Below, piece after piece: positions 7,323-57,578 of a DNA stretch of 64,000 nucleotides. The DNA is from a virus. The notes below the pieces were generated by a model that was given only the letters and a program-made list of their open reading frames with translations, was not told the DNA's origin and did no database searches. The DNA lies in IMG/VR virus record IMGVR_UViG_3300035670_011224, positions 1 to 64,000 of that record; one strand, written 5' to 3'. Positions within the stretch are counted from its first letter, which is position 1, and each line of letters opens with the position of its first letter. The position numbers and the translations under genes were made by a program.

Positions 7323-10300
7323 ATGAATAAAATTACTAAAATATTTAATAACATAGGATTTCTTTGTTCTGTTAGTAATAACACTTTTATTCAGCATAAT
7401 GCTATTAATGGCTATAAAGCATTAGAACAAGATACTATTGGATATTTTATTCCATACTTAATTCGTAATATTAAAGATGGATACAAATGGGAAACCGGAG
7501 TTGGCGAAATACAGTATAGTGATGGTTTATTAGTAGTTAAAAGAATAGAAGTTACAAATTCATCAAATAATAACAAACCAGTTAATTTTATTGGTAATGA
7601 AAATGAGTTTTATCTTTTTGTAAATAATAATAATTTTAATAGTAGTTTTAATAATGTTATTGTTAAGAACGATCATTTTACTATCGATAATGTAACAAGC
7701 ATTTATTTGGTAGATAACAATGATAAAAATATTGATTGTGTATTACCAGACCCTAAAAAAGCTAGAAATATTGTTATAGATATCAAAGCACTGTCTTCTG
7801 CTCACAACATAATAATTAGAGATTGTGATGGTTTAATTTTTGAGTCAACAAGCACATCAACCAGGCTGGTTTGCGATGGACAAGCATGGTATTCTCTTAA
7901 TCAAAATGATCAATTAAATTTTGCTTCGTTATCAGATGACTCTTTTTCGTCGTTAAGTAATCCTGGTGGAGCAGCATATTCTTTTCAATATAATGATGGA
8001 TCCAATGGCTTATTAGGCTCCGAATTGTATTGGAGTTCTGGAAATACTAATAAATTATTATTAGGATCAAGCTCAGAATCTTTGGCCCATACTGTTATAC
8101 CAACTTCTGGTTCAGCAAACACAATATTTAATCAAGATTTGCAACCGAGTGATTTTATAGTTTATGGCAGTGGGCAACCATATCGAAATCTTTTCTTTAG
8201 TTATGATGGTAGGGTTGGTATAAATATTCCATCAGGATCCAGACCACAAACTATTTTTCATGTTGTAAATTATAGTTGCAGTGAAATATTAAGACTGGAA
8301 AATAGAACAACTTGTCAACCAGCAAAATTAACAGTTTATCACAAACCATCATCACTTAGTAATGGTGGAGTATGTTCTATATTAAACTTAGCTGGAAGAG
8401 ATGTTAATAATAATCAAAAAGATTATGCAACCATATATAGTATAGCGTCTGACACTACCAACGGTAATGGTGGGTTGGTATTGACTGTTAGTTCTGGTTC
8501 GAGTCAACAGCCACTAGTGTCCGGAAGCTTAGATAGCATTAATCTTGGTTATAGTAATAATAAAAGAATAAATATTAATAATAATGGTAATGTAAATATT
8601 TCTGGTGATAATATTGATATTAGATCATCTACCCTAAGTACTATTGGAACATCTAATACATATATAACGCTTAATAATACCAATAGAAGCATATCTTTAG
8701 ACTATAATTCGCTGCTTTTGGGTACGGGATCCATCACCAGCAACGGCACCTTATCTGCTAATAATATTAGTTCTAATACCATAACACTACCCAATATAGC
8801 AACTAGTAGTTTGTTGACCATATCTAATAATAAGACTATTGTTCCAGTTAATGGTATAACAGTTAATAGTGGAAATAATGGCTTAATCTTTAATAATATA
8901 TCTGGTAATAAATTTTTAACCACAGACAGTACCAACAATCTTGTTGGATTATATGATTTAGATGATTATTTTCTAACAGAAAAAGATATAACCTGGAACA
9001 AATATACTCCAAAAATAGCTAGTGTGTGTTTAAAACAAGTTATTTTATCTGAGAATACTCCAATAGAAGAATTTAGTGTTGGAGATCAGGTAGAAATTAT
9101 TACTAGTAATAGTTCTATATATAGGAATATAACATCCTTAGTAACCAACGAAGCTTTCATAACAGAAATAATTTTAGATCAAAATGTTTCTACCAATGAA
9201 ATTAATAATATTACTATTTCTTCAGTAACAAAGGGTGGCTATTTAACAATTCAAAAATTTTCTTCTGAATCTTCATCGGATAGCACATCGAATATTCTTA
9301 GCGTAAGACCAAAAACGGAGACAGTCTTTAATACTGCTCAAAAAGATATTGATTTTACAGTTTATGGTGCTGATATTAGACCAGCACTAAAAGTACATGC
9401 TAGTGTAGGATCTATCACAACGGTTTCTGGAACATATTATAATTTTGCCACTAAAGACGATAATATAAAACCTATTGTAATAAATACTGTTGGTAGCGGT
9501 TTAACTAATAATTTTAGCACAGCTAATTATAACTATAGCTTAACTAATAATTTATTTAGTGGTATACTATCTTCTGTTGGTACTAATGGTAAGAGTAGTT
9601 ATTATGGAACATATGATCAAAATGGTAATGTTGCAGAGTGGATAGAGTCCGATATTACGGATGGTATAGTAACATTAGAATATGCTGCTGGCGGATCCTA
9701 CAGAACACCTGTTACTGGCAGCGTATCTCCGGATGCTGATTCTATCTATTTAAGAGGAATACAGCAATTTCCGATTATTTCCGGATACGATTACGTTGGT
9801 TTTAGAGTAGCTAGCATTAGTAATCTAGTTGATAATGCCAATATATCAAATAGTTCAAGTTTAAATTTAAGTTTTGTAAATATTATTAATGAGAATAATA
9901 TAGCAGATACAAAGGATCTGTACTTACAATTTTCTAACAATACTTATCAAAATATTATTATTCCAAATCTTGGTGTTGTGGATAAAAATTATCGTATAGG
10001 CAGATACGAGGTTACTAATAAGCAATATGTTCAATTCTTAAATAGTGTAGCAACCACTGTTGGAGATCCTGTTACTACCGGATTATATAATCCAAATATG
10101 ACAAATGCTCAAAATGGTGGTATACTAAGATCTACTAATGGTTTAGTATTTGAATATTCAATAAAACCAAATATGGAAGATAAACCTGTTAATTATGTTA
10201 ATTATATTAATAGCTTGCAATTTATTAATTGGTTACATAATGACGCTCCAGAAGAAGTTAGTTCAAATGATGCAAATAGTATTATTAATGATGGTGCATA

Positions 10301-10892
10301 TACAATATTATTAGCTGGTAGTACTTATTATATAACAGCTAATAATAATAGAAAGTATTTCTTACCCAGCTTTAACCAATGGCATAAAGCTGCGTATTTC
10401 GAATACCAGGAATCAATCTTTGTTAGTGGTTCACCAGCTATTACAATGGGTACTTTTGAGCCGTATGTTGTAGCAACAGAATTGTTATCTGAAAACAGTA
10501 CCGATCCACCAAAACAAGTTTTAGCTAATTTAACTGTTAGTGGTTGGTTGGTGGTTGATAAGATTTTTGTAAGAGACGGTACCGTTAGATCCTCATTGAA
10601 AGATATTGGATTCGTACCAGATCTTACCGCCGACACTATAGAACAACAAGCGGCTGGCGTAATACCTCCGTTAAGCACAGATGTCGGAGGTATCAATAGC
10701 GATACATTCTGGAATAATAATACTTCATCGAGTTGGGGTGGTGGAGGTGGTATATATGGCGAAACTAATCCACCTCCCATTGTTAATGCGGATGGAACAG
10801 AAAACGAAGGAGATTGTGAAGATGAAAATTTAATTGCTACAAATAATATTCCGCATTGGTGTCGAGACGATGGTAGACCCGGTTTATTCTAA
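7323..10892 (+). CDS. Tail fibre/adhesin-like protein with an inserted, circularly permuted FGE-sulfatase (SUMF1/CLec-fold) domain
   Basis: N-terminal WETGVG...SSNNNKPVNF fibre-type motif and an Asn/Ser-rich beta region. GTYDQNGNVAEW...GGSY...GFRVAS comes before YRIGRYEVTN...PVNYV...NWLHN...LPSFNQWHKAAY. Confidence 0.75.
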   Translation: MNKITKIFNNIGFLCSVSNNTFIQHNAINGYKALEQDTIGYFIPYLIRNIKDGYKWETGVGEIQYSDGLLVVKRIEVTNSSNNNKPVNFIGNENEFYLFVNNNNFNSSFNNVIVKNDHFTIDNVTSIYLVDNNDKNIDCVLPDPKKARNIVIDIKALSSAHNIIIRDCDGLIFESTSTSTRLVCDGQAWYSLNQNDQLNFASLSDDSFSSLSNPGGAAYSFQYNDGSNGLLGSELYWSSGNTNKLLLGSSSESLAHTVIPTSGSANTIFNQDLQPSDFIVYGSGQPYRNLFFSYDGRVGINIPSGSRPQTIFHVVNYSCSEILRLENRTTCQPAKLTVYHKPSSLSNGGVCSILNLAGRDVNNNQKDYATIYSIASDTTNGNGGLVLTVSSGSSQQPLVSGSLDSINLGYSNNKRININNNGNVNISGDNIDIRSSTLSTIGTSNTYITLNNTNRSISLDYNSLLLGTGSITSNGTLSANNISSNTITLPNIATSSLLTISNNKTIVPVNGITVNSGNNGLIFNNISGNKFLTTDSTNNLVGLYDLDDYFLTEKDITWNKYTPKIASVCLKQVILSENTPIEEFSVGDQVEIITSNSSIYRNITSLVTNEAFITEIILDQNVSTNEINNITISSVTKGGYLTIQKFSSESSSDSTSNILSVRPKTETVFNTAQKDIDFTVYGADIRPALKVHASVGSITTVSGTYYNFATKDDNIKPIVINTVGSGLTNNFSTANYNYSLTNNLFSGILSSVGTNGKSSYYGTYDQNGNVAEWIESDITDGIVTLEYAAGGSYRTPVTGSVSPDADSIYLRGIQQFPIISGYDYVGFRVASISNLVDNANISNSSSLNLSFVNIINENNIADTKDLYLQFSNNTYQNIIIPNLGVVDKNYRIGRYEVTNKQYVQFLNSVATTVGDPVTTGLYNPNMTNAQNGGILRSTNGLVFEYSIKPNMEDKPVNYVNYINSLQFINWLHNDAPEEVSSNDANSIINDGAYTILLAGSTYYITANNNRKYFLPSFNQWHKAAYFEYQESIFVSGSPAITMGTFEPYVVATELLSENSTDPPKQVLANLTVSGWLVVDKIFVRDGTVRSSLKDIGFVPDLTADTIEQQAAGVIPPLSTDVGGINSDTFWNNNTSSSWGGGGGIYGETNPPPIVNADGTENEGDCEDENLIATNNIPHWCRDDGRPGLF

Positions 10893-10905
10893 GTGAGGAG
10901 TTTAT

Positions 10906-13458
10906 ATGTTATGGTATAATATTCTTAGTCCCAGAAACTGGTCTGGAGTAAGATTACAAACAGGAAATAAAAAAGTAGATGGAGTATATTATAATCTATT
11001 AAGTAGTAAAGATGTTAGTCTAGCTGCTAGTGGAACAATGTACTTAGTAGCAAATAGCGGAATTAGATTAATAAGTCCATCTTTTGTTGATGTTAGCGGA
11101 CTAAGAAGTATAAGTCTTAGTTCTGTAGAATATTCCAAAATAGATAATTTAGGTAATCCTTTGCCTTTCTATCCGGGTGCGACTGGCGGTATAGCTGTAA
11201 AAATTGACGATGATAATATTTTGGCAACAGATATCATAACATATGATAGTGGAAATAATATTTTAAAATTCCCATCCGCTAATCCTGGCGGTCCTTTATA
11301 TGTTGTTCCGCCACATTATGAAGCCGGAGAAATAGTTGATTTGGCAAATCTTTCTTCATTTGATGGGCTTATACTAAAACCAGAAGAAACAGACGCTTCT
11401 GAACCACCAGTCATAACACCAGCAACCATAACAGCAAATACTATTATTTATGCTAATTCTGGAATAAATCTTGGACCAAATAATAATTTGGATTCTTATA
11501 GAGGATTCATACTCACACATGCTGGCTCAGGAGAACCAGCCGAATGGAAACCGGCAGTTTATCTAAGAGAAAATTATAGTGTCGATGCACCACTAGAAGG
11601 ATTAGAAAGAATAGGTATAAACTGGATTAGATATCCTAAAAGACCGGCTTTAATAAGAAATGGTCGAATATATATTTATAAGACAAACAGATCATGGTCG
11701 CCGTATCCGGCGATAGGATCTGATACAGAAATTCTTGCGAATGAATTGGGTACCGGTTCAGACACTTTATGTGTTGAAACTGCTATAGGAGATATTATTG
11801 TAGGATATACCAAATTTGCTTTCGTAGCGAAAGCTTCTAGCCAAGAAAAGATCGAAGCAGAATTTAATTTTGAGGAAAGTTTAAAAACCGTAAGCATAAT
11901 CGATCCAAATGGCCCAATTGATGAAGGTTCAGTTCCGGCCTACGAAATAGAAATAGCTCCCGAAGAACCAGAAGGAATAGGCTCAGGAGCAATAGGAGCA
12001 AATGTGTTCTTATTTTCTGTTACAAAAGGCGGCTATTTCCCTATGCAATTGGAACCAAATGCTACAGACAATATAACATATACTAACAACCAAAATGAAG
12101 AAATAGATGCTATTGGCACAATAGAAACACAAGATGATGGAACTCTGTTAGAAACACCTATTACTATTCCATTAAGATTTAAACCTTCTACAATTAATAA
12201 TCTTAGTATAAGACCAAGTATCCATACTGCTTTTAATATGCTAGGAGAGGATATAGATTTTGTTATTTATGGAAAAGAAAATACAAACTTTAATAACTAT
12301 AATAGTATCTTTGATCTTAATGATAATTTTCTACCACAAGGACTAACACCTGTTTTCCGTGTGGACGCTAGTGTTCCTAATAGCGTTAGTGGATCACCGA
12401 GTGGCGTAATATATAGTAAGTTTATAGATAGAGCCAAAACACATCCGATAGGCTGGGGTTTTGATCGCGCCGGTAAGGTTTGTATAAAAACTAATGATCC
12501 GTATAAAATGGGATCAATACCAAGTGGTAATGGAGAATTGATAGCTTATGCCGATGTGACGATTAGTGGTCATACATATAGTAAAAGTATTATTACAGAG
12601 GATATATTTCTTAGGCCAAAACCAGCTGTAGATAATAAAGGGAAATATATAAGAAATGCTTTATTAACAGTAAATTCGGAAGGTCAGATAGTATCAAGAA
12701 CTCCAAGAGTTAATCCTATTATACCAGACGCTCCGTCCGGCGTGGCCGGAATAGCTAATGGTTATGGTGGAATTGGAAATAATGAGCACTCTATTCGTTG
12801 GGACGCGCCAGTTAGCGATGGTAGATCAGCAATACTTAATTATCTAATACAACTATCTCATAATAATGGAGAAAACTGGATAGATGTACCTAACGAAACA
12901 ATCGGTGTTCTTAGGGGTTTTAATACTCAAACATCGGCTACAATAACACAGGTTGCTGCCCCAGCTATTTTTAGAGTAGCTGCACAAAATGGAGTTGGTA
13001 TTGGTCCTTATTCTGAGGCTACCGATATCACTTTTGTGAGCAACACGGGTCTTCCTCAGAGTCCAACAAATTTTACTGTTACTAGAAAAATAGATACTCT
13101 TACAATATCTGATGTTGATCTATCTTGGACACCGACTAATTCATGGGGATCATATAGTGCTAGTGGATATCTAATAGAAGAATCAACAGATGGTGGATCT
13201 AGTTGGTTTAATATAGCGTTTATTCCGTACAATGAAGACAGCTCTCATAATGAAACAGGCCTGGATGGTATTACAAATTATCTGTATAGAATTAGCGCTA
13301 TTAACACTAATAATGGTAAAAGTGCATATAATTATGTATATACTACAGGTGTTTTATTAGAAGATCCAGACTTAGAAGAAGAAGAGAATAAGAAAAATGA
13401 TGAATTGACTAATTTTGATTTTGGTGTTATATTATTTACTGGAATATGTGCTGTTTAG
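10906..13458 (+). CDS. Virion protein, partial paralog of 7323-10892, with two C-terminal fibronectin type III domains
   Basis: Shares the SVTKGGY...LS(I/V)RP...FN...DIDF..YG block with the preceding gene. FN3 signatures PDAP..WDAPVSDG..Y..FRVAAQNGVG and WTP..YLIEES..GL...Y.YRISAIN. RBS GAGGAG upstream. Confidence 0.75.
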   Translation: MLWYNILSPRNWSGVRLQTGNKKVDGVYYNLLSSKDVSLAASGTMYLVANSGIRLISPSFVDVSGLRSISLSSVEYSKIDNLGNPLPFYPGATGGIAVKIDDDNILATDIITYDSGNNILKFPSANPGGPLYVVPPHYEAGEIVDLANLSSFDGLILKPEETDASEPPVITPATITANTIIYANSGINLGPNNNLDSYRGFILTHAGSGEPAEWKPAVYLRENYSVDAPLEGLERIGINWIRYPKRPALIRNGRIYIYKTNRSWSPYPAIGSDTEILANELGTGSDTLCVETAIGDIIVGYTKFAFVAKASSQEKIEAEFNFEESLKTVSIIDPNGPIDEGSVPAYEIEIAPEEPEGIGSGAIGANVFLFSVTKGGYFPMQLEPNATDNITYTNNQNEEIDAIGTIETQDDGTLLETPITIPLRFKPSTINNLSIRPSIHTAFNMLGEDIDFVIYGKENTNFNNYNSIFDLNDNFLPQGLTPVFRVDASVPNSVSGSPSGVIYSKFIDRAKTHPIGWGFDRAGKVCIKTNDPYKMGSIPSGNGELIAYADVTISGHTYSKSIITEDIFLRPKPAVDNKGKYIRNALLTVNSEGQIVSRTPRVNPIIPDAPSGVAGIANGYGGIGNNEHSIRWDAPVSDGRSAILNYLIQLSHNNGENWIDVPNETIGVLRGFNTQTSATITQVAAPAIFRVAAQNGVGIGPYSEATDITFVSNTGLPQSPTNFTVTRKIDTLTISDVDLSWTPTNSWGSYSASGYLIEESTDGGSSWFNIAFIPYNEDSSHNETGLDGITNYLYRISAINTNNGKSAYNYVYTTGVLLEDPDLEEEENKKNDELTNFDFGVILFTGICAV

Positions 13459-46992: not shown

Positions 46993-47956
46993 GAGTTTCT
47001 AGTATTTCTTGAATATTATCTTTGGGAATTATATTAGTATATGTAATATCTTTTATATTAGAATCGTTTAAGCTAGATACACTTCCGTTCTTATTAAGAT
47101 CAAGTTGATTCCACCAAATATGATTATTAACAGATATATTAATGATGGGTCTATTTAATTTATTAGCAAATAGCATTTGAATATTATCGCTTAATGAAAG
47201 AAAAACATCCCCAGTATTATGTGCTGTGATTACATTAGAAATAGTATTATCTATTGGAACAATAACTATATTAGTAATACTATAATTAATTTCAAATAAA
47301 TTATACATATCTTTTATATATTTATTATATGTCTCTAGCGTTTGCTGAGATATATTACATATATACAAAATTAAACAAGTATTGCTATTGTCCTCGAAAG
47401 TTTTTATGAAATTGATAATAACATCTTTAACAATATATTCTGGTAAATTATCAATAATAGTATAATATTTTTTATATTTTGAATATATTCCTAAGTTATA
47501 TTTACCTATATTATTTTGTGAATAAAATCTATGATTTATTGTATATGTTAGTTCTTTTTTATTTTTAATATCAATATTATCTAGTATGAATTTAGTAGTA
47601 TTATTACTATACAAATAATTTATTTTTTCATCTAATATAGCATATTTTTGTTTTTGCTCATAAGATGGCATTATATTATGTGTTATTGGCCAAAATATAT
47701 GATATGGTATTTTTGATGTATAACAGTAATTCAAAATCGAGACATTCTGTATAATAACATCAAATGAATTTATCTGTTTATTTTCTGTTATTTCTAATAT
47801 ATCTGTAAATTTTTTATCTTTTATTGTTTTTGTTCCATCGAATACTGGTCTGCTAACTACATCTAATCCCATATCATGTAAATTACATAGTAAATTTATA
47901 GATTCGTATCCTATACTATTTGATAATCTATATGGTGCAATATATAATATTTTCAT
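46982..47956 (-). CDS. Degenerate GT4-like glycosyltransferase
   Basis: MKILYIAPY...GY N-terminus and AHNTGDVFLS, but no EGFG.P..EA after it. Confidence 0.55.
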   Translation of the reverse strand: MKILYIAPYRLSNSIGYESINLLCNLHDMGLDVVSRPVFDGTKTIKDKKFTDILEITENKQINSFDVIIQNVSILNYCYTSKIPYHIFWPITHNIMPSYEQKQKYAILDEKINYLYSNNTTKFILDNIDIKNKKELTYTINHRFYSQNNIGKYNLGIYSKYKKYYTIIDNLPEYIVKDVIINFIKTFEDNSNTCLILYICNISQQTLETYNKYIKDMYNLFEINYSITNIVIVPIDNTISNVITAHNTGDVFLSLSDNIQMLFANKLNRPIINISVNNHIWWNQLDLNKNGSVSSLNDSNIKDITYTNIIPKDNIQEILETHAQ

Positions 47957-49605
47957 GTGTTATTTTTTAGATGTGCGTATTGAATAAAGTCTTCTTCGAA
48001 TTTATGATTTGTTTTTCTTATATCTTCGGACCTATTATTGTTATCTATCATAACATTTATATAATCATATATATTATTAATATCATATGCGGATATTTGG
48101 GTTGGAGAATTATAGCTAAATCCATAATCAGCGTTTTGTAGCATATTCAAAAATTTAAATGAAGATAATAAATCTGCATTTCTTACATAATTATTACAAA
48201 GATTTGCTAATACGCTAAAATTATTTTTATTACCATCTGACTGGGTTTTATCGGCTTTATTTAAGATAGTTAACGGTACGTTCCAGTCTGCTCTATATTC
48301 CAGATTATCAAAATAGTTTTCCCATACTTTTGATATATCATCCCAATTATAATATTTTTCTGTTAGTTGTCTTATTTTTAATCTTTCTGTATTTCTAATC
48401 GGTATTGGTTTGGCCATTTGCTTGAGTATAATACCAATTAGATCTTTGTTATTTGGATATACACGAATTGCTTTTGTTTCTAACTCTTTGAAATAAGAAC
48501 TAGGATTAACTTTGAATGCTTGTAATTTTTCTATAATGTCAACCATTGCACTATAATCTACGGTAGCAATAGGTATCCCACACGCGCCTGCTTCAACTTG
48601 TGGCATACCAAAACCTTCACAAATAGCATATTGTACATAAAGATCGAATAGATTGTATATTTCACTTAATTGAGTATCTGAAACACCATTTGATACAGAT
48701 GGAAACTGACAGGTTTTATTTAAGCATTTTGAACACACTTTTAATGGGCCACTAAAAACACAAGCCTCAGTATTCTGACAAGTTTTGCATAGGTATGTAA
48801 ATAGGACATGATTGGATACTTGGTATTGGCTAAGTAATTCCGGTATATCCCAGCCCATGTCCGGATATGTGGTATGTAGATATAGGTAAATTTTTTGATT
48901 AGTCTTTTGTATTTCGGGCAAGGAGATTATCTGTTTAAGGCTATATAAAAGTTCTGGTATTAGTTTGCGTTTCTGATTTCTCATCACGGAACCAAACACA
49001 AAAGCTTCTTGTGGTATATTGAATTTTTGACGTAGTAGATTTTTATCTTTGATAGAAAAAATATCTAAATTTACACCTGGGCTGGTTGTTGCTATGTACT
49101 TGATTTTATTATTAGTTTGTTCTTTTAGAACTTTTGCCCCCCAATCACTATATGTAAAAATGGCATCTGTTGATAGAAATACGTCTACCCACTCTTCTTG
49201 TTGTGGAGCAGAATCTACTGTGGGCATAAGGATATGATGAAAATAAGATCTTAAAGGAGATAAGGTTTGGTAACCGCTCATCCAAAAATCTCTTACGTCA
49301 ACAACAACATCCGGCTTAAAGTCTAATAGAACTTTCTCAAATCTCCACCTTCCAAATTGATTATCTGTCCTAGACATGTATTCCTTATATCTAGGATCAT
49401 TATCCCTCACAGCATTTGCATAATAAATCCAGTCTATATTTTTATCTCTCGGATCATTGACCATACCATAGGAAGCAAATTCTGCAACAACGTATTTGTT
49501 AGTTTTATGCCATCTGGATAAAATCTCGTAAGCATATTTACCAAAACCAGAATTTATGAAGCTGGCTTCGGAGCACATCAATATTTTTAGTTTAGATTTT
49601 GCCAT
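47953..49605 (-). CDS. GT4 family glycosyltransferase with a Zn-ribbon insertion
   Basis: KILM...SGFG, RNQKRK, DLYVQY..CEGFGMPQVEAGACG, and CKTC...CSKC insertion. Confidence 0.88.
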   Translation of the reverse strand: MAKSKLKILMCSEASFINSGFGKYAYEILSRWHKTNKYVVAEFASYGMVNDPRDKNIDWIYYANAVRDNDPRYKEYMSRTDNQFGRWRFEKVLLDFKPDVVVDVRDFWMSGYQTLSPLRSYFHHILMPTVDSAPQQEEWVDVFLSTDAIFTYSDWGAKVLKEQTNNKIKYIATTSPGVNLDIFSIKDKNLLRQKFNIPQEAFVFGSVMRNQKRKLIPELLYSLKQIISLPEIQKTNQKIYLYLHTTYPDMGWDIPELLSQYQVSNHVLFTYLCKTCQNTEACVFSGPLKVCSKCLNKTCQFPSVSNGVSDTQLSEIYNLFDLYVQYAICEGFGMPQVEAGACGIPIATVDYSAMVDIIEKLQAFKVNPSSYFKELETKAIRVYPNNKDLIGIILKQMAKPIPIRNTERLKIRQLTEKYYNWDDISKVWENYFDNLEYRADWNVPLTILNKADKTQSDGNKNNFSVLANLCNNYVRNADLLSSFKFLNMLQNADYGFSYNSPTQISAYDINNIYDYINVMIDNNNRSEDIRKTNHKFEEDFIQYAHLKNNT

Positions 49606-50080: not shown

Positions 50081-50108
50081 ATTATACCAAGCGGCAGCGT
50101 TTTGTCAA
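50081..50108 (-). promoter_or_regulatory. Consensus sigma70-type promoter for ssb
   Basis: Minus strand TTGACA-16 nt-TATAAT with extended -10 TG. The -35 overlaps the stop codon of the dnaE C-terminal piece. Confidence 0.85.
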
Positions 50109-51718
50109 GATCTTGGTATAAAACATTTTTCTACTATAAAAGAGTCTTTTTTAGGACTCTTATTGCCTAGAAATATTAGTACATTTCCTTCGAATAGATA
50201 GTTTCGATATTTAGACAATTGATCAGGAAATAGGATAACGGAATCCAAGGATGCGTATTGATCCTCTATTGTGACAAAAGCCATTTCTGCACCAGCATTT
50301 TTCCCATTCTTTGTCTTAACAAAATTTATATTACTAATTTCACCAGCTAAAATAATATTTTTAACATTATTGGTATGTTTAAACATTTTGCAATCACAGT
50401 TGGTCATACTAATGTCGTATGAGTCTATTTTAAAACAGGTAATAGACGCCCCAAGCAACGCATTTTCTGTGTCAGATAACCATTCTATTTTATCGTTTAG
50501 TGAGTATGGTGGATTTTTATATAGTTTAATCAAATTTTGTATATTAGTTTTTCGTTTGATATTAATCTTACTATTAGTCAGTAGATTTTCTAAAACTTGT
50601 CCTAGATATTTTTGGTTTATATCTAAAAGATCTAATTCTCTAGATGTTAATTCTGATATTATGTCATATTCAAATAACATTTGTGTGCGTGACATATGAT
50701 AATAATCAAGGGCTCCGCATGATATTAGTGCCTTAGCGGCTGTAGAGTTTATTTTATTGAGCAATTTTACTAAGCATCCATACCATGATATAGAATTAAG
50801 ATCAATATTTTTGACTATTTCCATAATCTTATCATATACCGAATAACCAACACCTTTTATATCTGTTAAACCAAAATAAATTTTATCATCGTTTATAGTA
50901 AAGTGTTTATTAAGTTTTCTTAAATCTGGAACGCAAACAGTAACATCCATTTCTGTCGCGTTTCTAATTAATTCCTTGATCTCTTTTTGGGGATCCATCT
51001 TGTCTTTTGCGAACTTTAAATATGATGCAAAAAATACTTTGGCAAAGTGTGCTTTTGCATATGCTGATGAATATGCATTCATAGCATAACTTACAGCGTG
51101 GCTCTTGTTAAAGCTATATCTTTGACTTTTTTCTATCCAACCAAAAATTTCTTCGCTCTCGTCTTCTGAGACAATATTAAGTTTTTTAACACCATCTTTG
51201 AATTTAACTTTGATTTTTGCCATTTCTTCTGGTTTCTTTTTGCCTATGGCCTTACGAAGCATATCGGCTTCTTGAAGATCGAACCCGGCCACCGCCTGAG
51301 CGATTTGCATGGCCTGTTCTTGATAAATCATCTCGCCATAGGTGGATTTTAATGAAGGCTCAAGAGAAGGATGGAAGTAGTCTAATTCTTCTAGACCATT
51401 TTTTTTATCTATATAATGATCACTGATGCTTTTGCCTTCCCTATATGCCTCTAATGATCCTGGTCGCATAATACTAATCAATGCAGAAAGTTGCTCTATA
51501 TTTTGTGGTTTAAGTTTTTTGGACATGCTAGAGCCTAGTCTGGATTCTAATTGGAAAACGCCTTTTGTGTTTCCTTGTGCTATCATATCCCATGTTTTGG
51601 AACATTCTAGATTCAGATTTTCTAGTTTGCCATCGAAATCTATTCTAGGAATACCATCCTGGGTATAGTCCAATACCTTAAATTTACAACCACAATCAAA
51701 CGTATAGTGATGATTCAT
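50105..51718 (-). CDS. dnaE: DNA polymerase III alpha, C-terminal piece (fingers, HhH, OB)
   Basis: GVFQLES, MRPG, YQEQ.MQIA, LRKAIGKK, YSFNKSHA, GLTDIKGVG, and MAFVTIED. Confidence 0.93.
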   Translation of the reverse strand: MNHHYTFDCGCKFKVLDYTQDGIPRIDFDGKLENLNLECSKTWDMIAQGNTKGVFQLESRLGSSMSKKLKPQNIEQLSALISIMRPGSLEAYREGKSISDHYIDKKNGLEELDYFHPSLEPSLKSTYGEMIYQEQAMQIAQAVAGFDLQEADMLRKAIGKKKPEEMAKIKVKFKDGVKKLNIVSEDESEEIFGWIEKSQRYSFNKSHAVSYAMNAYSSAYAKAHFAKVFFASYLKFAKDKMDPQKEIKELIRNATEMDVTVCVPDLRKLNKHFTINDDKIYFGLTDIKGVGYSVYDKIMEIVKNIDLNSISWYGCLVKLLNKINSTAAKALISCGALDYYHMSRTQMLFEYDIISELTSRELDLLDINQKYLGQVLENLLTNSKINIKRKTNIQNLIKLYKNPPYSLNDKIEWLSDTENALLGASITCFKIDSYDISMTNCDCKMFKHTNNVKNIILAGEISNINFVKTKNGKNAGAEMAFVTIEDQYASLDSVILFPDQLSKYRNYLFEGNVLIFLGNKSPKKDSFIVEKCFIPRS

Positions 51719-51723
51719 AAATA

Positions 51724-52425
51724 TTATGCGGACGCTGTGGCGAACGCGTTTTTGAATTTAACCTTATTACCAAGATTTCTATGAAGTTTCATAAATCTAA
51801 TAAGAATATCAGCCGTGGCTCTTACATCATTTAGAGCATCATGAGATCCACTATTGCCAAGACCTAGGTATTCTCTAACATTATCTAATGTATAGTTTTT
51901 TAGTTCATTGTTTCCTTCAAACCAATAAAATATAACATTCATTAGATCTATAACGTCTCGTGGATAAAAAAGAGATGTTCTTCCCTCCTTATTGACATTA
52001 TTATATTTCGTACTTAGTCTTTCTATAATTCTAAGATCAAATCTATTTATATTGTATCCAGCAGCTATTGGTGCTGTAAAACAAGATTTTTTATCTGATC
52101 TTATATGATATTTCTCTAAATAAGATACGAACATTTTCCATCCATTATCCTGATTTTGATAAGATTTCCAGTCCTCTAATATTTTAGTTTTGTCGCATCC
52201 TCTAACCTTGGCATGGAAATCAAGAACATCACTATCATCATATATATAATCAGGTTTTTCATCCAATATGGATGGTTTTAGATTAATATTAAATTCTGAG
52301 TCTTTGATAATTTCTAATTTATATGGATCTATTATCAGAGAGGCAATTTGAACGGGGCTACAAAGGTCAGGATTAGCCCCGTCCGTTTCTAAATCAAATA
52401 CACAAATTTTTTGTAAATTAGCCAT
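51724..52425 (-). CDS. DEDDh 3'-5' exonuclease (DnaQ/epsilon-like)
   Basis: Exo I FDLETDG, Exo II GYNINRFD, Exo III HDALND. Confidence 0.9.
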   Translation of the reverse strand: MANLQKICVFDLETDGANPDLCSPVQIASLIIDPYKLEIIKDSEFNINLKPSILDEKPDYIYDDSDVLDFHAKVRGCDKTKILEDWKSYQNQDNGWKMFVSYLEKYHIRSDKKSCFTAPIAAGYNINRFDLRIIERLSTKYNNVNKEGRTSLFYPRDVIDLMNVIFYWFEGNNELKNYTLDNVREYLGLGNSGSHDALNDVRATADILIRFMKLHRNLGNKVKFKNAFATASA

Positions 52426-52600
52426 TTGTCTCCACTACTGTGTTTCCTGGGAAAAAAGTCCTTTGATTACTATCTGTTGCAACATGACAATTAACGCTTC
52501 TGCAACAGCTTACTCTAACTTCTTGGATCTTAGTATATTCTACATTATTAGCTTTAAAGTTTTCGCCCACAGCAACTTGGTCTAATGTTTTTGTTAACAT
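52418..52600 (-). CDS. Small hypothetical protein (60 aa, CC..C)
   Basis: Overlaps both neighbours, with TAATG coupling at 52600. Confidence 0.65.
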   Translation of the reverse strand: MLTKTLDQVAVGENFKANNVEYTKIQEVRVSCCRSVNCHVATDSNQRTFFPGNTVVETNG

Positions 52601-53484
52601 TATAGTTCTCCGTTTTTTAGGTATTCTGATACAGACATGATTTTGTCCAAATAAGCGATACCCAATATATCAAATTTAATTAAACCCAAACTCTCTAGAT
52701 CATTCATCTCCATGCCCGCTATCAGCTGATCATTTCTATTATCATAGACCATAGGACACAGAGATGCAAGATCTTCGGTACCTATTATTACACCAGCAGC
52801 ATGTTTGCTTTGATTAGATTTTGTTCCTTCTAGTCTTATGGCCTGTTCAAATCTTTTTGACAATGGACCAGCCAACGAACCATCTTCTGCTATGTAGCAC
52901 CATTCTTTAAGCTTGTCTGTGTTATTCTCTAAAGCCCATCTAATAATCGAGGCTTCTCCGGTATCTTCTTTCATCTCCTGAAGTTCGTCGGCTATTTTGG
53001 CTTCGTCAGGAATAAATTTGGTAATAGAATTCATTTCTTCGAAAGATATATTACCATATACTCTTAGCACATCTTTTAACGCCCCTCTACCTTTCATAGT
53101 ATTAAAAGTAATCATTTGTGATACTTTGCCATGTCCATATTTACTTTTTATATATTCTAATACTTGTTCTCGTTTATCTATTGGAATATCTATATCGATA
53201 TCTGGCATTTGTATTCTGGCTGGAATGCTTTGTATTGGGCGAGTATTATCAAGCTGATCGACAATACCATATATCCACATTATATAACTATTAATAGTGT
53301 TTTCGGATAAAATATTTTTATTTACTATTATATGATTATAGTATGATATATTTTCTGGAGCCGAAAGAACTATAGAGCATTCATGTTCAAGAAATCTATT
53401 ATTTTTTTCTTGTTCTAACCTTTCGATTATAGGCTGGCTTTTAATCTCATGTACTAGTCTAGTAAGTGTAGAATTTTTTTCCAT
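52600..53484 (-). CDS. dnaE: DNA polymerase III alpha, middle piece (catalytic palm/thumb)
   Basis: MPDIDID at residue 93, SKHAAGV, and IKFDILG, so all three catalytic Asp are here. It has a 92-aa N-terminal extension. Confidence 0.93.
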   Translation of the reverse strand: MEKNSTLTRLVHEIKSQPIIERLEQEKNNRFLEHECSIVLSAPENISYYNHIIVNKNILSENTINSYIMWIYGIVDQLDNTRPIQSIPARIQMPDIDIDIPIDKREQVLEYIKSKYGHGKVSQMITFNTMKGRGALKDVLRVYGNISFEEMNSITKFIPDEAKIADELQEMKEDTGEASIIRWALENNTDKLKEWCYIAEDGSLAGPLSKRFEQAIRLEGTKSNQSKHAAGVIIGTEDLASLCPMVYDNRNDQLIAGMEMNDLESLGLIKFDILGIAYLDKIMSVSEYLKNGEL

Positions 53485-54272
53485 TTGTAGTCTATATATA
53501 AATGATTGTTTAGTAAATATTTTGCTATAACTTTAATTTCACTCTTGTTTTGGTATATTAACTGATATAAGTCTTTATTTTTTATTTTTGTTGGTTTTTT
53601 ATATTTTACAGGCAAGGCTTTGGACACTGTTTCCAAATTTTCTGGAAGATATGAACATATACCTATGTTGTAACCAGTGTAGACTTTATTTTTATTGGTT
53701 TGTTTTTTTATACTAACCCATCCATCAGCATCCCAATATCCTCTTATAAAATCTGGCCATAATAATTGATCCGACGGTAATTTTAAAGTACTATACCATG
53801 TTTTTCTTGGTATAATACCATATTTTGATATATTATTTGCTAAAATATCGCTAGTAAATTGAAATGTACACCTATTATCGTAGTCTTTTACTATATTAGA
53901 GCCTATTAAAAATTTAGAAAATTTAATCAAATGTTTTTTTGATTCTGACCCCAAGCATAATTGTAGCTTATTACTATCACTAATATTTCCATCGCCAAAA
54001 ATAAAACCAAGCCAATAAGCTGATGCGGCATCTAATTTAGAAAAATCATTTAATAATTTTTTTTTACTATTTTTAGTAAATCTAGTTGATTTTGCTAAAC
54101 AACCACAACTTTTAACATGGTTAATCTTTATCATAGATAGTTTCTTATAACAGATATTGCCGCATTTACATTTACACTTAGCAATTGTTTCTCCTTTACT
54201 ATCCGGAACTAAAGTTATTATAGTAAGTAAATTATAACTCTTATTTTTATAGTCTTTTATTTTAGTTTTCAT
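53454..54272 (-). mobile_element. Free-standing LAGLIDADG homing endonuclease gene with an N-terminal Cys-rich (CKCKCG...SCGC) module
   Basis: AYWLGFIFGDG and FIRGYWDADG motifs. Likely ATG at 54272 with GGAGG upstream. No intein splicing blocks seen. Confidence 0.88.
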
Positions 54273-54276
54273 ATTG

Positions 54277-54336
54277 CCTCCGGAATTATACTGTTTATAC
54301 ACCATTCTTAAATGTTTGTATAGAAAATTCCGGAAA
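54277..54336 (-). promoter_or_regulatory. RNA hairpin sequestering the homing endonuclease RBS
   Basis: Minus strand TTTCCGGAATT...AATTCCGGAGG outer stem, plus inner TATACA/TGTATA and CATT/AATG stems. GGAGG lies in the 3' arm. Confidence 0.7.
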
Positions 54337-55593
54337 AGATATGTGTTCTTTTACATTCCTGCCATCGGAATAAAATCTTTCAAATAGTAATTCATGTTTA
54401 ATAGGATCTATATCTGTAATACCTATTAAATAAGAAACCAAGCATCCGGCTGCGCTTCCTCGTCCTGGTCCTGCTAACCAATTATTATTTTTAACATGTC
54501 TTAGTATGTCTTGAACAATTAGAAAATAACTACTAAGCCCAGCATTTTGCAAAACCTGTAGTTCATATTTTATTCTATCAACATAAATATCGTGTTGTGA
54601 TTTGTCAATATTCGGTATAATTCTATTTTTCCAACCTTTTCTACATAATTCTCTTAAATATTCATCCGGAGAGAATCCTTCGGGACATTCGAATTTAGGC
54701 AATTTAGGTGGCGATAGTATATCAAAATTTTCTATTAGACTATCCACAAACAAAGTGTTTTCTATCTCTTCGTCATTATGAAGAGTTTTCATTTCTTCTG
54801 GAGACAGAATGTAGTATTTATCGCTTTTAAAGAAACACTCCATAGGCACAGATTGATTATGAAGCATCTTAGTATTTATATCTGATAATGTTGTTTTAAG
54901 ATTATTACAGAGCAATATTCTTTGATCTATAGCATCGTCCTGTTCACAATAATGAGCATCCGGTGTGCATACCGCTTTTGTTTTACTTAATTCAGAAATT
55001 CTTCTTATTGTATCTGTCAAATATGTTTGTTGTTTTAAATATGCTTGATCAAATAGTTGTGTCTCTAGAAAAAAATTATCAGTGCCAAATATAGTTTTCA
55101 TATAGTCCACAAAAGATAATCCATTGTCTATAGCTTTGGATTCGTCGCATAATATCTTATCTGCTAATGTTGATCCCAAATGTCCACAAATACCTATAAT
55201 GTTACCATCCAGTATTTCTGCTAATTTAGCCAGGCTTAAACGCGGCTTATGATAAAAGTAATCGGGTCTGTTAGATTCGGAAACAATCTTTATTAAGGTT
55301 TTCCATCCTTGCAAATTTTTCGCCAATACCAAAAAATGTGATAATGAAGCATTTTCTTTTGTTTGTATACTCGGATCATCTTCACATATATATAATTCAC
55401 AACCAAGAATTGGTTTTATATTTTTATTTCGCATTTTCTGATAGAACTGTACAGAGCCGGCGATGTTACCATGATCGGTTAAGGCACAAGAATTAATGCC
55501 TAATTTAGAACATCTATTAGCTATTTGTTCTGGACGATTAAGACCATCCAAAAGACTAAAATGCGAATGACAATGAAGAACAGAATAGGTCAT
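54295..55593 (-). CDS. dnaE: DNA polymerase III alpha, N-terminal piece (PHP domain and start of palm)
   Basis: HCHSHFSLLDG, TDHG, GCE, DAHY, GPGRGSAAG, and LLFERF. Confidence 0.95.
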   Translation of the reverse strand: MTYSVLHCHSHFSLLDGLNRPEQIANRCSKLGINSCALTDHGNIAGSVQFYQKMRNKNIKPILGCELYICEDDPSIQTKENASLSHFLVLAKNLQGWKTLIKIVSESNRPDYFYHKPRLSLAKLAEILDGNIIGICGHLGSTLADKILCDESKAIDNGLSFVDYMKTIFGTDNFFLETQLFDQAYLKQQTYLTDTIRRISELSKTKAVCTPDAHYCEQDDAIDQRILLCNNLKTTLSDINTKMLHNQSVPMECFFKSDKYYILSPEEMKTLHNDEEIENTLFVDSLIENFDILSPPKLPKFECPEGFSPDEYLRELCRKGWKNRIIPNIDKSQHDIYVDRIKYELQVLQNAGLSSYFLIVQDILRHVKNNNWLAGPGRGSAAGCLVSYLIGITDIDPIKHELLFERFYSDGRNVKEHISFPEFSIQTFKNGV

Positions 55594-57578
55594 ACTGATC
55601 CTGGTGCTTTGTAAGATCCAAAAGAATGATTCGGGTGTTTGTACATACTCATTGTAGCATCGATCCCGTAAAGTTCAAGGTCGTGCTTGACTTGTTCGCA
55701 CTTTGTCATGACAGATCCTTTTTGACATATTTGTCCATCTCTATATTCCTCCAAAGGTTGTATGCTAGTATTTTCAAAAGTGGTTTTACCGAAATGGCAT
55801 AATTTATTACACATCCATGTTTTATTAAGCTTAGGACGTTTTGTTTTCTTAATAATATCAAATTTTTCTCTCAACATATTTTCTGTGTCTATGAGATCGC
55901 TATCATGAAATACCATAGAAAAAGGACCACCATCATTAATAAAGTAGATAGAAAAAATTACATTTTCAATATGCGGATATAATTTTTTAATAGCATAGTG
56001 ATAAATTTTAAGTTGTGGATCTTTTTCTAACTTTTCTTGGGTTTTTTCTTGACCGGTTGCCCAATCTAGTCTTCGTCCAGTATTATGTGTTGGAATATAA
56101 TTTTCTGTACACAGATAAGTATTGTCTGGACTGTCTACGGAAATGCATTGAGTTTTTTGTATAATCGATTCTTCTATTTTAGAAACTCGTCTAACCCTAG
56201 ATCTTCCAGATCCCCAATTTACATCCACAAGTTCTTTTTTCCTGTTCAATAGAAAAGGATTAATATCAATTGGACGAAACGAAATAGGATATATGATTAC
56301 GTTTTTTTTGTAATTTGTATCTCTTTTAATACACGCTTGATTCGGTCTTTGCCCAAGGGTTAAAAGTAGGTCTTTAACATCGTCGGATAGTTTTTTATTA
56401 CAAGAAGTAAAGATGGTTTGTTTTCTAATTGGATTTACATTTCCGTCTGTATCCATCAAACCCCTTAGTAAGTCTAGTCTTTGTTGAAAAGATGCTCTCA
56501 AATAAATTTTTGGTATATGTTTATTATTCAATAGGTTTAAAGATTTTAGTATTTTTGTCACATTTAGGATCGATACTGTCTTATTTTTTGATCTTTTATC
56601 ATTTTGAATTTTTCCTAGCTCATAACCTCTTGCTTGTATTTCTTCAAAAATTTCGATATCATTGCCACTAATCTCGCAGCCTCTATTTCTTCCGTCTCCT
56701 AACCAGACTCCTAATAGATAAGGATCTATTGGTAGGGATTGTTCATTACATTTTAATGGTTTTGTCACATTAATAGTATCGCCAATAGCTAGATCCTGTA
56801 TAGATACCGTTTCACCATTAGATAATTTCCATAAATGCTCATCGTCACAAATTACCGATGTTTTGTCATCAAAAGTTACTCTGAAACATTTTTTTGTTTT
56901 GACTTTTGATTTTCCAACAACGCGACATATATTACCGTATTGATCAAAAACATTACATCCCACATTTATATCTGCAATTGTTGTCCATCCGTCAAGAGTA
57001 GGTAATTTTGTATCTAATGGCAATCCTTTCCAATCTATGACCTCAATAGTATTATCATTGGCCAAAGTTATAAGATCTATAGTGCCTTTTAAACCCAAAT
57101 ATCCATCTAGTTTTTGATTATTGATATTATACTCGTATTTAGCCCATGGTTTTTCTATTACCAAATCAAAATGTTGTTCTGGTCTAAGAATTGTGCGATT
57201 TCTAGGATCAAACATACCACCATTAAATTCTATAGCCTTGTAAACCCAATTATAGCAGTCCTTATAATCTTTTAGAGTCCAAGTATGATGACTATTAGCG
57301 GTACTATAATGCTTGTATACTTTTTCTATTATGGTATTAAGACTATAGTCGTTTATATCTATAAGACCTAAGAATTCGTCGTCGTTTATATGAGATAATT
57401 TATCTTGCTGACCTTGTTTGATCATAGCAAGAATTTCTAAAACTTTATGGACTATTGTTCCTTTATCCGCCTTTTGTCCACTTGGACCCCTCCATCCTAG
57501 TACATATTCAAAAAAAAATTGTTGTTCACACATAGAATGGGCATTATAAGATGAACTACGGAAATAAGTTATAATCAT
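55590..57578 (-). CDS. PD-(D/E)XK (RecB/AddB/Cas4-like) exonuclease, intein-containing
   Basis: GTIVHKVLE, E..F, GTIDLI, IDWK|TG and QLKIY motifs. One N-terminal Cys plus a C-terminal Cys cluster suggest an Fe-S staple. Confidence 0.88.
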   Translation of the reverse strand: MIITYFRSSSYNAHSMCEQQFFFEYVLGWRGPSGQKADKGTIVHKVLEILAMIKQGQQDKLSHINDDEFLGLIDINDYSLNTIIEKVYKHYSTANSHHTWTLKDYKDCYNWVYKAIEFNGGMFDPRNRTILRPEQHFDLVIEKPWAKYEYNINNQKLDGYLGLKGTIDLITLANDNTIEVIDWKGLPLDTKLPTLDGWTTIADINVGCNVFDQYGNICRVVGKSKVKTKKCFRVTFDDKTSVICDDEHLWKLSNGETVSIQDLAIGDTINVTKPLKCNEQSLPIDPYLLGVWLGDGRNRGCEISGNDIEIFEEIQARGYELGKIQNDKRSKNKTVSILNVTKILKSLNLLNNKHIPKIYLRASFQQRLDLLRGLMDTDGNVNPIRKQTIFTSCNKKLSDDVKDLLLTLGQRPNQACIKRDTNYKKNVIIYPISFRPIDINPFLLNRKKELVDVNWGSGRSRVRRVSKIEESIIQKTQCISVDSPDNTYLCTENYIPTHNTGRRLDWATGQEKTQEKLEKDPQLKIYHYAIKKLYPHIENVIFSIYFINDGGPFSMVFHDSDLIDTENMLREKFDIIKKTKRPKLNKTWMCNKLCHFGKTTFENTSIQPLEEYRDGQICQKGSVMTKCEQVKHDLELYGIDATMSMYKHPNHSFGSYKAPGSV
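56082..57026 (-). mobile_element. Class-3-type intein (315 aa) with LAGLIDADG endonuclease, first residue Gly
   Basis: Block A GLPLDTKLPTLDGW, block B CDDEHLW, LAGLIDADG motifs LLGVWLGDG and LLRGLMDTDG, block F TQCISVD, block G IPTHN/T. Confidence 0.92.

Follow-up and report, generated by a model that had tools for sequence, protein, structure and literature searches.

A LAGLIDADG endonuclease cassette divides a phage dnaE gene within the polymerase palm and adds conserved extensions to both pieces

Layout of the divided dnaE locus

The virus record IMGVR_UViG_3300035670_011224 of IMG/VR, 152,429 bp long and rated complete, comes from an uncultured phage with a G+C content of about 32%. In its first 64 kb, the stretch analysed here (positions 1 to 64,000, hereafter the window), dnaE, the gene of a C-family replicative DNA polymerase, is divided by a free-standing LAGLIDADG homing endonuclease gene. 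Open reading frame (ORF) calls and the Pfam and PHROG matches group six minus-strand ORFs at 50105-55593 as one polymerase cluster (Table 1). Piece A of dnaE contains the PHP domain and the first half of the palm (PF02811, 2.4e-34; PF07733 positions 1-99, 3.3e-32; phrog_405, 1e-111), and piece B, on the other side of the endonuclease gene, matches PF07733 positions 96-260 at 8e-39, starting from B residue 88. Across A, B and the more distal piece C, the cluster encodes the PHP, palm, fingers, HhH and OB regions of a C-family polymerase, with D95, D97 and D272 of B invariant. An earlier note, made from the letters of the window, had described this order of a dnaE N-piece, a LAGLIDADG gene and a downstream dnaE ORF, which the ORFs and Pfam matches bear out. 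Its spacing figures are also correct: the endonuclease ATG follows the stop of A after 22 nt, and the endonuclease frame runs 31 nt into B.

The active-site residues are divided between the two pieces as that note had claimed. In C-family polymerases, the GS motif of the palm binds the triphosphate of the incoming deoxynucleoside triphosphate. This motif (RGS) is encoded by A, together with FERF (A residues 404-407) and the Arg of GRN (A residues 411-413), after which only the 19-aa tail and the stop follow, and the catalytic PDIDID and KFD are encoded by B. The note's statement that the downstream ORF resumes at MPDIDID does not hold, as the first codon of B is located 92 codons ahead of MPDIDID. 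Since about 8% of random codons are stops at 27-29% G+C, an in-frame open stretch of 92 codons is unlikely to arise by chance, and this extra N-terminal stretch of B is also kept in relatives. Its first 89 residues are hereafter called the head, and the last 19 residues of A the tail.

Table 1 Features of the divided dnaE cluster in the window.
Feature	Positions	Strand	Basis
dnaE piece A, 432 aa plus stop: PHP and N-terminal half of palm	54295..55593	(-)	ORF, Pfam, PHROG
RGS, A residues 378-380, Pol-beta-like GS motif of palm	54454..54462	(-)	position
Foreign-sequence tract (co-conversion-like) in piece A, directly upstream of cassette	54349..54561	(-)	alignment to L011
FERFYSDGRN, A residues 404-413, with R406 and R412	54355..54384	(-)	position
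19-aa C-terminal tail of A, VKEHISFPEFSIQTFKNGV	54298..54354	(-)	absent from endonuclease-free allele
RNA hairpin: tail FPEF codons paired with the GGAGG ribosome-binding site of the endonuclease gene	54270..54343	(-)	folding and shuffles
Free-standing LAGLIDADG homing endonuclease gene, 272 aa	53454..54272	(-)	Pfam, PHROG, motifs
Mobile cassette (tail, endonuclease gene, head), 1128 nt = 376 codons	~53219..54346	(-)	MAFFT alignment to L011
dnaE piece B, 294 aa plus stop: head, then catalytic palm half and thumb	52600..53484	(-)	ORF, Pfam
89-aa N-terminal head of B, cassette-encoded conserved helical domain	53218..53484	(-)	alignments, model
PDIDID, B residues 94-99, strand with two catalytic Asp	53188..53205	(-)	position
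KFD, B residues 270-272, third catalytic Asp and conserved Lys	52669..52677	(-)	position
Rest of polymerase: 60-aa Cys-rich ORF 52418-52600, DnaQ-like exonuclease gene 51724-52425, piece C 50105-51718	50105..52600	(-)	ORF, Pfam, PHROG

The endonuclease gene lies in an open frame at 53454-54305, and its likely start is the ATG at 54272, located 5 nt past a GGAGG. The product matches PF14528 (3e-8), PF00961 (0.008) and phrog_4645 'endonuclease' (3e-28), and both LAGLIDADG motifs are present, LGFIFGDGN at residues 88-96 and IRGYWDADGW at residues 176-185. The N-terminus carries a Cys-rich CKCKCGN...SCGC module. These N-terminal 98 residues match positions 190-268 of phrog_374 (HNH endonuclease, 1.9e-9), which suggests a DNA-binding module common to several endonuclease families. 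Against the homologous gene of a related contig, L010, the ratio of nonsynonymous to synonymous substitution rates (dN/dS) is 0.22, suggesting that the endonuclease protein is maintained.

The hairpin over the ribosome-binding site of this gene, which coincides with inverted repeat I3, has a minimum free energy of -20.3 kcal/mol (z -4.29), and none of 200 shuffles folds as well. The relatives L010 and L085 do not conserve it, and in L088 the start codon is covered by a different hairpin (z -2.97). Since the hairpin is not conserved across lineages, we do not count it as a defining part of the insert. At the other end of the gene, the ATG of B lies inside the conserved Lys-Trp codons of the endonuclease. 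A promoter and terminator scan found signals no more often than in shuffles and placed no terminator on the minus strand within the dnaE cluster, and the pieces are thus probably co-transcribed. The window contains no tRNAs, and a DNA search of the phage collection returned only a 105-nt match, to a Chryseobacterium phage with an intact dnaE.

The insert in near-identical and diverged relatives

Searched with piece B, IMG/VR yielded 393 relatives, and the analysis kept the best 80. In this set the window allele is present in seven contigs from seven different metagenome datasets and thus belongs to a circulating phage. The alignment to endonuclease-free dnaE of relatives, which the earlier note had proposed as a check, finds the gene contiguous and the endonuclease gene absent in L011, a strain about 97% identical to the window phage. 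L011 has a single uninterrupted ORF of 621 aa reading ...FERFYNAGRNTKDRISMPDIDID..., and its sequence around the insertion point is ...AGGAATACCAAGGATAGAATTTCTATGCCAGAT.... L011 and L012, with 99% identity to the window in the B core, and most other relatives match B only from residue 90. In the MAFFT alignment of the window and L011 DNA, there is a single gap of exactly 1128 nt, whose ends are ambiguous by a few nucleotides. Relative to this near-identical strain, the insert is a mobile cassette, whose free-standing endonuclease ORF (PF14528) separates two gene halves that close relatives have in one piece.

The composition and the flanks of the cassette also set it apart. Its G+C content is 27.0%, vs 32.2% in the core of A and 35.1% in the core of B. 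The identity between the window and L011 is 96.7% across the first 1032 nt of A and 79.2% over the last 210 nt before the cassette, and downstream of the cassette the usual identity is back within 25 nt. This pattern is expected if the cassette was copied together with flanking donor DNA, or if it was lost by the reverse event. From its patchy presence among near-identical strains and the 210-nt foreign tract, the cassette is presumably mobile. No direct repeats of the kind used in site-specific excision were found flanking it.

Sequence comparison places the same three-part unit of tail, endonuclease and head in several phage dnaE genes that have diverged deeply. Piece A, a LAGLIDADG gene and head-B follow one another in the window, L010, L085, L088/L089, L095 and L097, and partially in L086, and this order recurs wherever the upstream DNA of contigs with a head homologue is available. 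The endonuclease stop overlaps the start of B in all cassette-bearing lineages, by 13-43 nt, and the B ATG falls within the Lys-Trp codons of the endonuclease in several of them. L010 carries the cassette between DnaE pieces that are only 64-70% identical to those of the window, with synonymous sites near saturation. Against L010, dN/dS is 0.17 for A, 0.10 for the B core, 0.26 for the tail and 0.36 for the head, and the head aligns without a single indel over its 89 codons at 49% amino-acid identity. On these substitution patterns, the tail, the endonuclease and the head are all protein-coding and under purifying selection.

Both extensions are in frame, absent from the endonuclease-free alleles and conserved in seven lineages. 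The tail follows the pattern [ILV]-[STN]-F-x-E-[FYCE] with an aromatic residue five positions on, and F-x-E is invariant. For the head, phmmer was run on 1.84 billion cluster representatives with the 89 residues as the query, and eleven true relatives (50%-identity clusters) emerged, all of which precede a DnaE catalytic core. Ten head residues are invariant (E35, Y48, Y49, I53, N55, N62, N65, S66, W70 and V75), and none of them is Gly, Arg or Lys. One of the eleven, P0007 (contigs L083 and L084), lacks the endonuclease gene, and a continuous 689-aa ORF covers both a tail-like and a head-like segment.

The catalytic residues are conserved on both sides of the break. RGS is invariant in all 25 aligned A or AB sequences and in all seven cassette-bearing lineages, and F404, R406, F407 and R412 are invariant in the A alignment. 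Every split A retains RGS, (E/S)RF and the Arg, even though the lineages that retain RGS, ERF and R share only 36-42% identity. Among 32 B sequences, P94, D95, D97 and D99 are invariant, as are K270 and D272.

Proposed reassembly of the palm and competing explanations

We consider it likely that the cassette-split dnaE is expressed as separately translated A and B, which reassemble non-covalently into an active polymerase with no splicing. The cassette sits between the triphosphate-binding elements of the palm (RGS and FERF...R) and the strand with the two catalytic Asp residues (PDIDID). In this reading, A and B would be translated from a single transcript and joined by neither RNA nor protein splicing. 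With piece C and the exonuclease, they would form the enzyme, in which A gives the nucleotide-phosphate contacts and B the metal-binding carboxylates. The active site is probably composite, as first proposed in the earlier note. The tail and the head would serve as the cassette's own repair kit, docked on each other and holding the cut ends side by side. The endonuclease would cut endonuclease-free dnaE alleles during co-infection, and the unit would spread by recombinational repair.

A group I (or group II) intron that carries the endonuclease ORF would instead restore a contiguous dnaE message by RNA splicing. A length of 1128 nt and a layout of an ORF followed by about 270 nt are what one expects of a phage group I intron that carries a homing endonuclease gene, and the Rfam model is not fully sensitive. 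However, a search of 52300-54700 on both strands with the covariance models of Rfam 15 at E <= 10 found nothing relevant, the only match being a chance snoRNA at E 7.2, and at gathering score no family was found in the whole window. There is no group I or group II signal, in line with the assembly without splicing that the earlier note had inferred. More telling is that the rest of the cassette, beside the endonuclease gene, also encodes protein, where an intron would have non-coding RNA. The 267 nt downstream of the endonuclease gene form an open frame in phase with the exon, with no indels and with the dN/dS of purifying selection, and their translation has homologues at the start of B pieces in eleven 50%-identity clusters. 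They are also modelled as a confident protein domain, and in L083 the head segment is translated in cis. The 5' part of an intron would be just about 75 nt, itself encoding a conserved peptide. An intron is therefore very improbable.

Joining at the protein level would require the tail and head to be the halves of an atypical split intein that ligates A to B by trans-splicing. A very short N-part is a known feature of some atypical split inteins. Split inteins accompanied by a free-standing endonuclease gene also occur in fractured dnaE genes (PMC2677866), and three of the relatives, L027, L028 and L034, provide examples within the same gene. Their dnaE (about 3536-6615) is broken after GRG (GRG|S), 35 residues upstream of the break in the window. 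The N-piece there continues with CFVPDT... for about 95 residues (N-intein), a gene for a 269-aa PD-(D/E)XK-like endonuclease follows, and the C-piece begins with about 50 residues (C-intein) ending in ...GVHN ahead of SAAG. For L034, which serves as a positive control, Pfam reports Intein_splicing (5e-6), Hom_end_hint and Hint signals. In the window, by contrast, Pfam finds no Hint domain in A or B at E <= 0.01 and none in the head even at E <= 10, and the head is all-helical where Hint domains are beta-rich. The tail and head amount to 108 aa in total. At the tail and the head-core junction, there is no conserved Cys or Ser opening the tail, no His-Asn and no conserved Cys, Ser or Thr nucleophile, residue 93 being Met, Leu or Phe. 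The absence of intein blocks stated in the earlier note is thus borne out by Pfam, by the helical head model and by the junction residues, and a split intein has hardly any probability left.

An AlphaFold2 model of the head, built from a 12-sequence alignment, consists of five helices (mean predicted local distance difference test score, pLDDT, 82.7; predicted template modelling score, pTM, 0.72). Compared with 48,161 PDB representatives, seven of its nine top matches are C-family polymerases, each time at the segment directly before the catalytic Asp, with 77-81 residues aligned. The matches are to 9qpc (residues 827-970, Z 5.7), Mycobacterium tuberculosis (Mtb) DnaE1 (5lew, 316-420, Z 5.3), 7pu7 (316-420, Z 4.5), Escherichia coli alpha (5m1s/5fku, 287-401, Z 4.4), PolC (3f2b, 828-973, Z 3.4) and Taq (2hpi, 305-462, Z 2.9). 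That seven of the nine best structural matches of a predicted model fall on one segment of one enzyme family seems hard to ascribe to chance. A structure search of the ESM-Atlas gave two viral PF07733 proteins as the best matches (TM score 0.60) and scores of at most 0.40 for the remainder; a feature search of the ESM-Atlas with the head gave no usable match.

Alignment extensions point in the same direction as the model. BLASTP alignments of B with the intact DnaEs of phages PhiR41_1 and MTATph1 run through the head from residue 20-22, with an 11-residue gap at GPGRGS. Positions 32-67 of phrog_21652 are matched by A residues 380-411 and also by a stretch starting at B residue 58. The tail, for its part, resembles a degenerate version of the catalytic strand TKDRISMPDIDID, position by position. 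When tail VKEHISFPEFS is set against TKDRISMPDID of the uninterrupted allele, E422 stands at the first catalytic Asp and Ser424 at the second, and tblastn alignments of the end of A with intact phage DnaEs continue through the tail, to query residue 144 of 151. With moderate confidence, the pieces can be described as overlapping, A consisting of a real N-half and a dead strand and B of a dead N-half and a real strand. A direct BLASTP comparison of the head with A is not significant (E 4.9). With the sequence-level tests not significant, the idea of a duplication draws on the structural matches and the alignment extensions.

If the head still functions as a reduced N-half that packs on the catalytic sheet, B would be a self-contained palm, A would have a PHP or structural role only, and the active site would not be composite. 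The head model does have the fold of the palm N-half, placed in native order directly before the catalytic strand; the invariant N65-S66 could be a relic of the GS motif, and the tail of A could likewise close A's own N-half. However, the head has the 11-residue gap at the GPGRGS loop, lacks the FERF helix and contains no invariant Gly, Arg or Lys, while RGS, ERF and R remain invariant in A at 36-42% identity, which is unexpected for a redundant copy. Since the head is without the RGS loop, the FERF helix and an invariant basic residue, and since these residues are invariant in A, the N-half of A is probably still the working one. In a model of whole B (pTM 0.55), only residues 94-274 superpose on DnaE structures, namely on E. 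coli alpha 401-557 (Z 7.8) and Mtb DnaE1 420-589 (Z 11.7); head and core together superpose on none, and pLDDT drops to 56 around the catalytic strand. By this model the head probably does not occupy the native N-half site of B, in keeping with that site being left for A. We consider a self-contained B unlikely.

In the preferred arrangement, with A and B sharing one active site, the tail docked on the head would form a dead pseudo-palm that joins the cut ends. Such docking fits the cis-fused L083, since the tail runs straight into the head there. One can go further and regard the cassette as carrying a fossil copy of the active site as an antidote. The head would then be a decayed N-half of the palm and the tail a decayed strand with an invariant Glu in the place of the first catalytic Asp. 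The tail would dock at the former GS loop of the head (N62, N65 and S66), in the manner of the real strand on the real N-half, and this pseudo-palm would latch the two chains beside the live site. We offer this version tentatively and think it somewhat more likely to be wrong than right. If true, homing endonucleases would have, besides introns and inteins, a third means of entering an essential gene without harm, one that is defined, structured and portable and is common to phage dnaE genes.

The insertion might also simply be damaging, leaving a split dnaE that is inactive or decaying in a phage that either is defective or replicates by means of host enzymes. Insertion of a homing endonuclease gene can carry a mild fitness cost. 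The three cassette parts and both dnaE cores are, however, under purifying selection at saturated synonymous sites, the catalytic residues are invariant, the same allele was assembled from seven datasets, and the arrangement persists in at least six diverged lineages. We therefore regard a damaging insertion as improbable.

Several observations weigh against reassembly of A and B as described above, or against parts of it. Piece B has no obvious Shine-Dalgarno sequence in the window phage, and its translation may depend on coupling to the endonuclease gene, itself possibly repressed by the hairpin. The direction of the event that separates the window from L011 is ambiguous and may be gain in the former or loss in the latter. 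The Rfam group I model may miss divergent introns with large ORFs, and the search had no positive control in this phage family. The likeness of the head to the palm N-half is that of an AlphaFold model, with Z scores of 4.4-5.7 that are below the caution line for helical folds. Profile comparisons are not significant: hhalign of the head gives E 0.27 against AB sequences and E 0.098, in the expected register, against N-half-only sequences, and alignment A4 (head) gives E 0.28 against alignment A2. A profile search of the PDB sequences with the head gives E > 1.

Other breaks in the cluster and relation to known split genes

The dnaE of this phage family contains a second break, located after KFDILG...NGEL, where the small Cys-rich ORF and the exonuclease gene lie between B and C. 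Piece C comprises fingers, HhH and OB and has a novel Cys-containing N-terminus. The order AB, small ORF, exonuclease and C is kept in 80 of 80 related loci, the best 80 of the 393 relatives. Since the downstream piece of L097 is a single 816-aa protein of head, B and C, the cassette break is independent of this family-wide one. Rossellomorea phage phiT1 is annotated with two DnaE genes and a 49-aa ORF between them. In L025, L027, L028, L070 and L073, an extra insertion of about 720 nt lies between B and the small ORF. The L027 insertion contains an ORF of 227 aa that has no Pfam match and combines a CxCxCG...SCGC module like that of the window endonuclease with an HNH-like C-terminus. For several endonuclease families, the dnaE cluster is a hot spot. 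In the diverged relative L085, head-B and the exonuclease gene are separated by a ClpP-like, a GIY-YIG and a second LAGLIDADG gene (2930-5511).

Intein-like elements occur in and around the cluster as well. In L083/L084, the fingers part of DnaE is broken into several ORFs (8218-11436) with a weak Intein_splicing match, and P0009 has an intein beginning after FNAC in the fingers domain. Upstream of dnaE, the window encodes a 662-aa PD-(D/E)XK nuclease (55590-57578, minus strand) with an intein-like insert that matches LAGLIDADG_3 and ends in ...THN before T; the orthologue in L034/L027 has 315-331 aa and no insert. A glycosyltransferase downstream of the gene for the single-stranded DNA-binding protein has 954 aa in L010 (9885-12749) vs 550 aa in the window (47953-49605); the ~400 aa by which the L010 protein is longer resemble an intein that contains an endonuclease domain.

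Introns and inteins are the usual vehicles by which homing endonucleases get into essential genes. A different arrangement, that of nrdA and mobE in Aeromonas phage Aeh1, was reportedly described by Friedrich et al. in 2007. In Aeh1, the free-standing HNH gene mobE splits nrdA into nrdA-a and nrdA-b, and the insert-derived tails are essential for NrdA activity (Crona et al. 2011, PMC3045599). The earlier note had named this case as a precedent, and it fits well, the conserved tail and head of the cassette being comparable with the tails of NrdA (PMC3045599). In both systems a free-standing endonuclease splits an essential gene of nucleotide metabolism in its active-site region with no intron or intein, and the insert extends the upstream piece at its C-terminus and the downstream piece at its N-terminus. 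Expression of mobE in Aeh1 is held down by RNA structure, and the window hairpin over GGAGG, which resembles the silencing of mobE and I-TevI, could act alike. The window differs in having a LAGLIDADG rather than an HNH endonuclease and a C-family replicative polymerase as the host gene. Its 89-aa extension is a conserved domain, folded in the model and apparently derived from the host gene, whereas the Aeh1 extension is a short charged peptide. Unlike that of Aeh1, the unit is spread over many diverged lineages.

The MobA element, which splits genes 39 and 60, is said to have been described by Bonocora et al. in 2011. MobA, about 1.1 kb long, splits the large subunit of T4-type topoisomerase II into these two genes within the Toprim metal site, always at a single position (bioRxiv 10.1101/2022.08.31.505936). 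The element also supplies in-frame extensions at the C- and the N-terminus, both of them conserved, and the N-terminal one consists in part of a diverged homologue of the host sequence that was replaced; some MobA lineages lost the endonuclease and re-fused the gene while keeping the extensions (bioRxiv 10.1101/2022.08.31.505936). The window cassette is of similar size, occupies one site in a catalytic domain, divides a metal-binding or catalytic region and carries conserved extensions, and L083/L084 look like the cis-fused relics of MobA. On the other hand, the window has no translational bypass cassette, and the endonuclease family and host gene are different. Its N-terminal extension is twice as long as that of MobA and is modelled as a copy of a whole sub-domain.

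Fractured genes, in which split inteins have a free-standing endonuclease gene between their halves, were listed for three dnaE loci (Dassa et al. 2009, PMC2677866). The same authors briefly mention endonuclease invasion of intein-less genes, and no dnaE case was found among those mentions (PMC2677866). The fractured genes and the window share the order of N-piece, endonuclease gene and C-piece, the dnaE gene and an origin in phage-like environmental DNA, and L027, L028 and L034 carry exactly this type of break. The window, by contrast, has a helical head with neither a Hint domain nor splicing residues, so that its product cannot be ligated. The family-B polymerase gp43 is encoded by two genes in some T4-like Aeromonas phages, in one case with a GIY-YIG gene between them (Petrov et al., via PMC2677866). 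As far as this second-hand account goes, gp43 and the window are alike in that a phage replicative polymerase is made as two polypeptides from an endonuclease-associated break with no splicing. By the same account they differ in polymerase family (B vs C), in the break site and in the endonuclease family.

To our knowledge, the route of splitting a gene and adding extensions has biochemical proof only for Aeh1 NrdA and has been described comparatively for the T4-type topoisomerase. The present case extends it to a C-family polymerase cut between its nucleotide- and metal-binding halves, to another endonuclease family and to a foldable 89-aa extension. One phage family contains a natural series of endonuclease-free, tail-bearing split, cis-fused and split-intein alleles, which makes the tolerability of gene breaks directly testable and provides an unusually good experimental system. 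If binding between the tail and head proves true, the pair could be used as a non-covalent protein-assembly tag. The earlier note knew of no such description for a C-family polymerase, and a search of the literature outside subscription journals likewise found no intein-less, endonuclease-made break in one. The principle of splitting is already known from the systems above; what is new relative to them is the host enzyme, the cut site, the LAGLIDADG family of the endonuclease, and an N-terminal extension of this size, fold and apparent origin.

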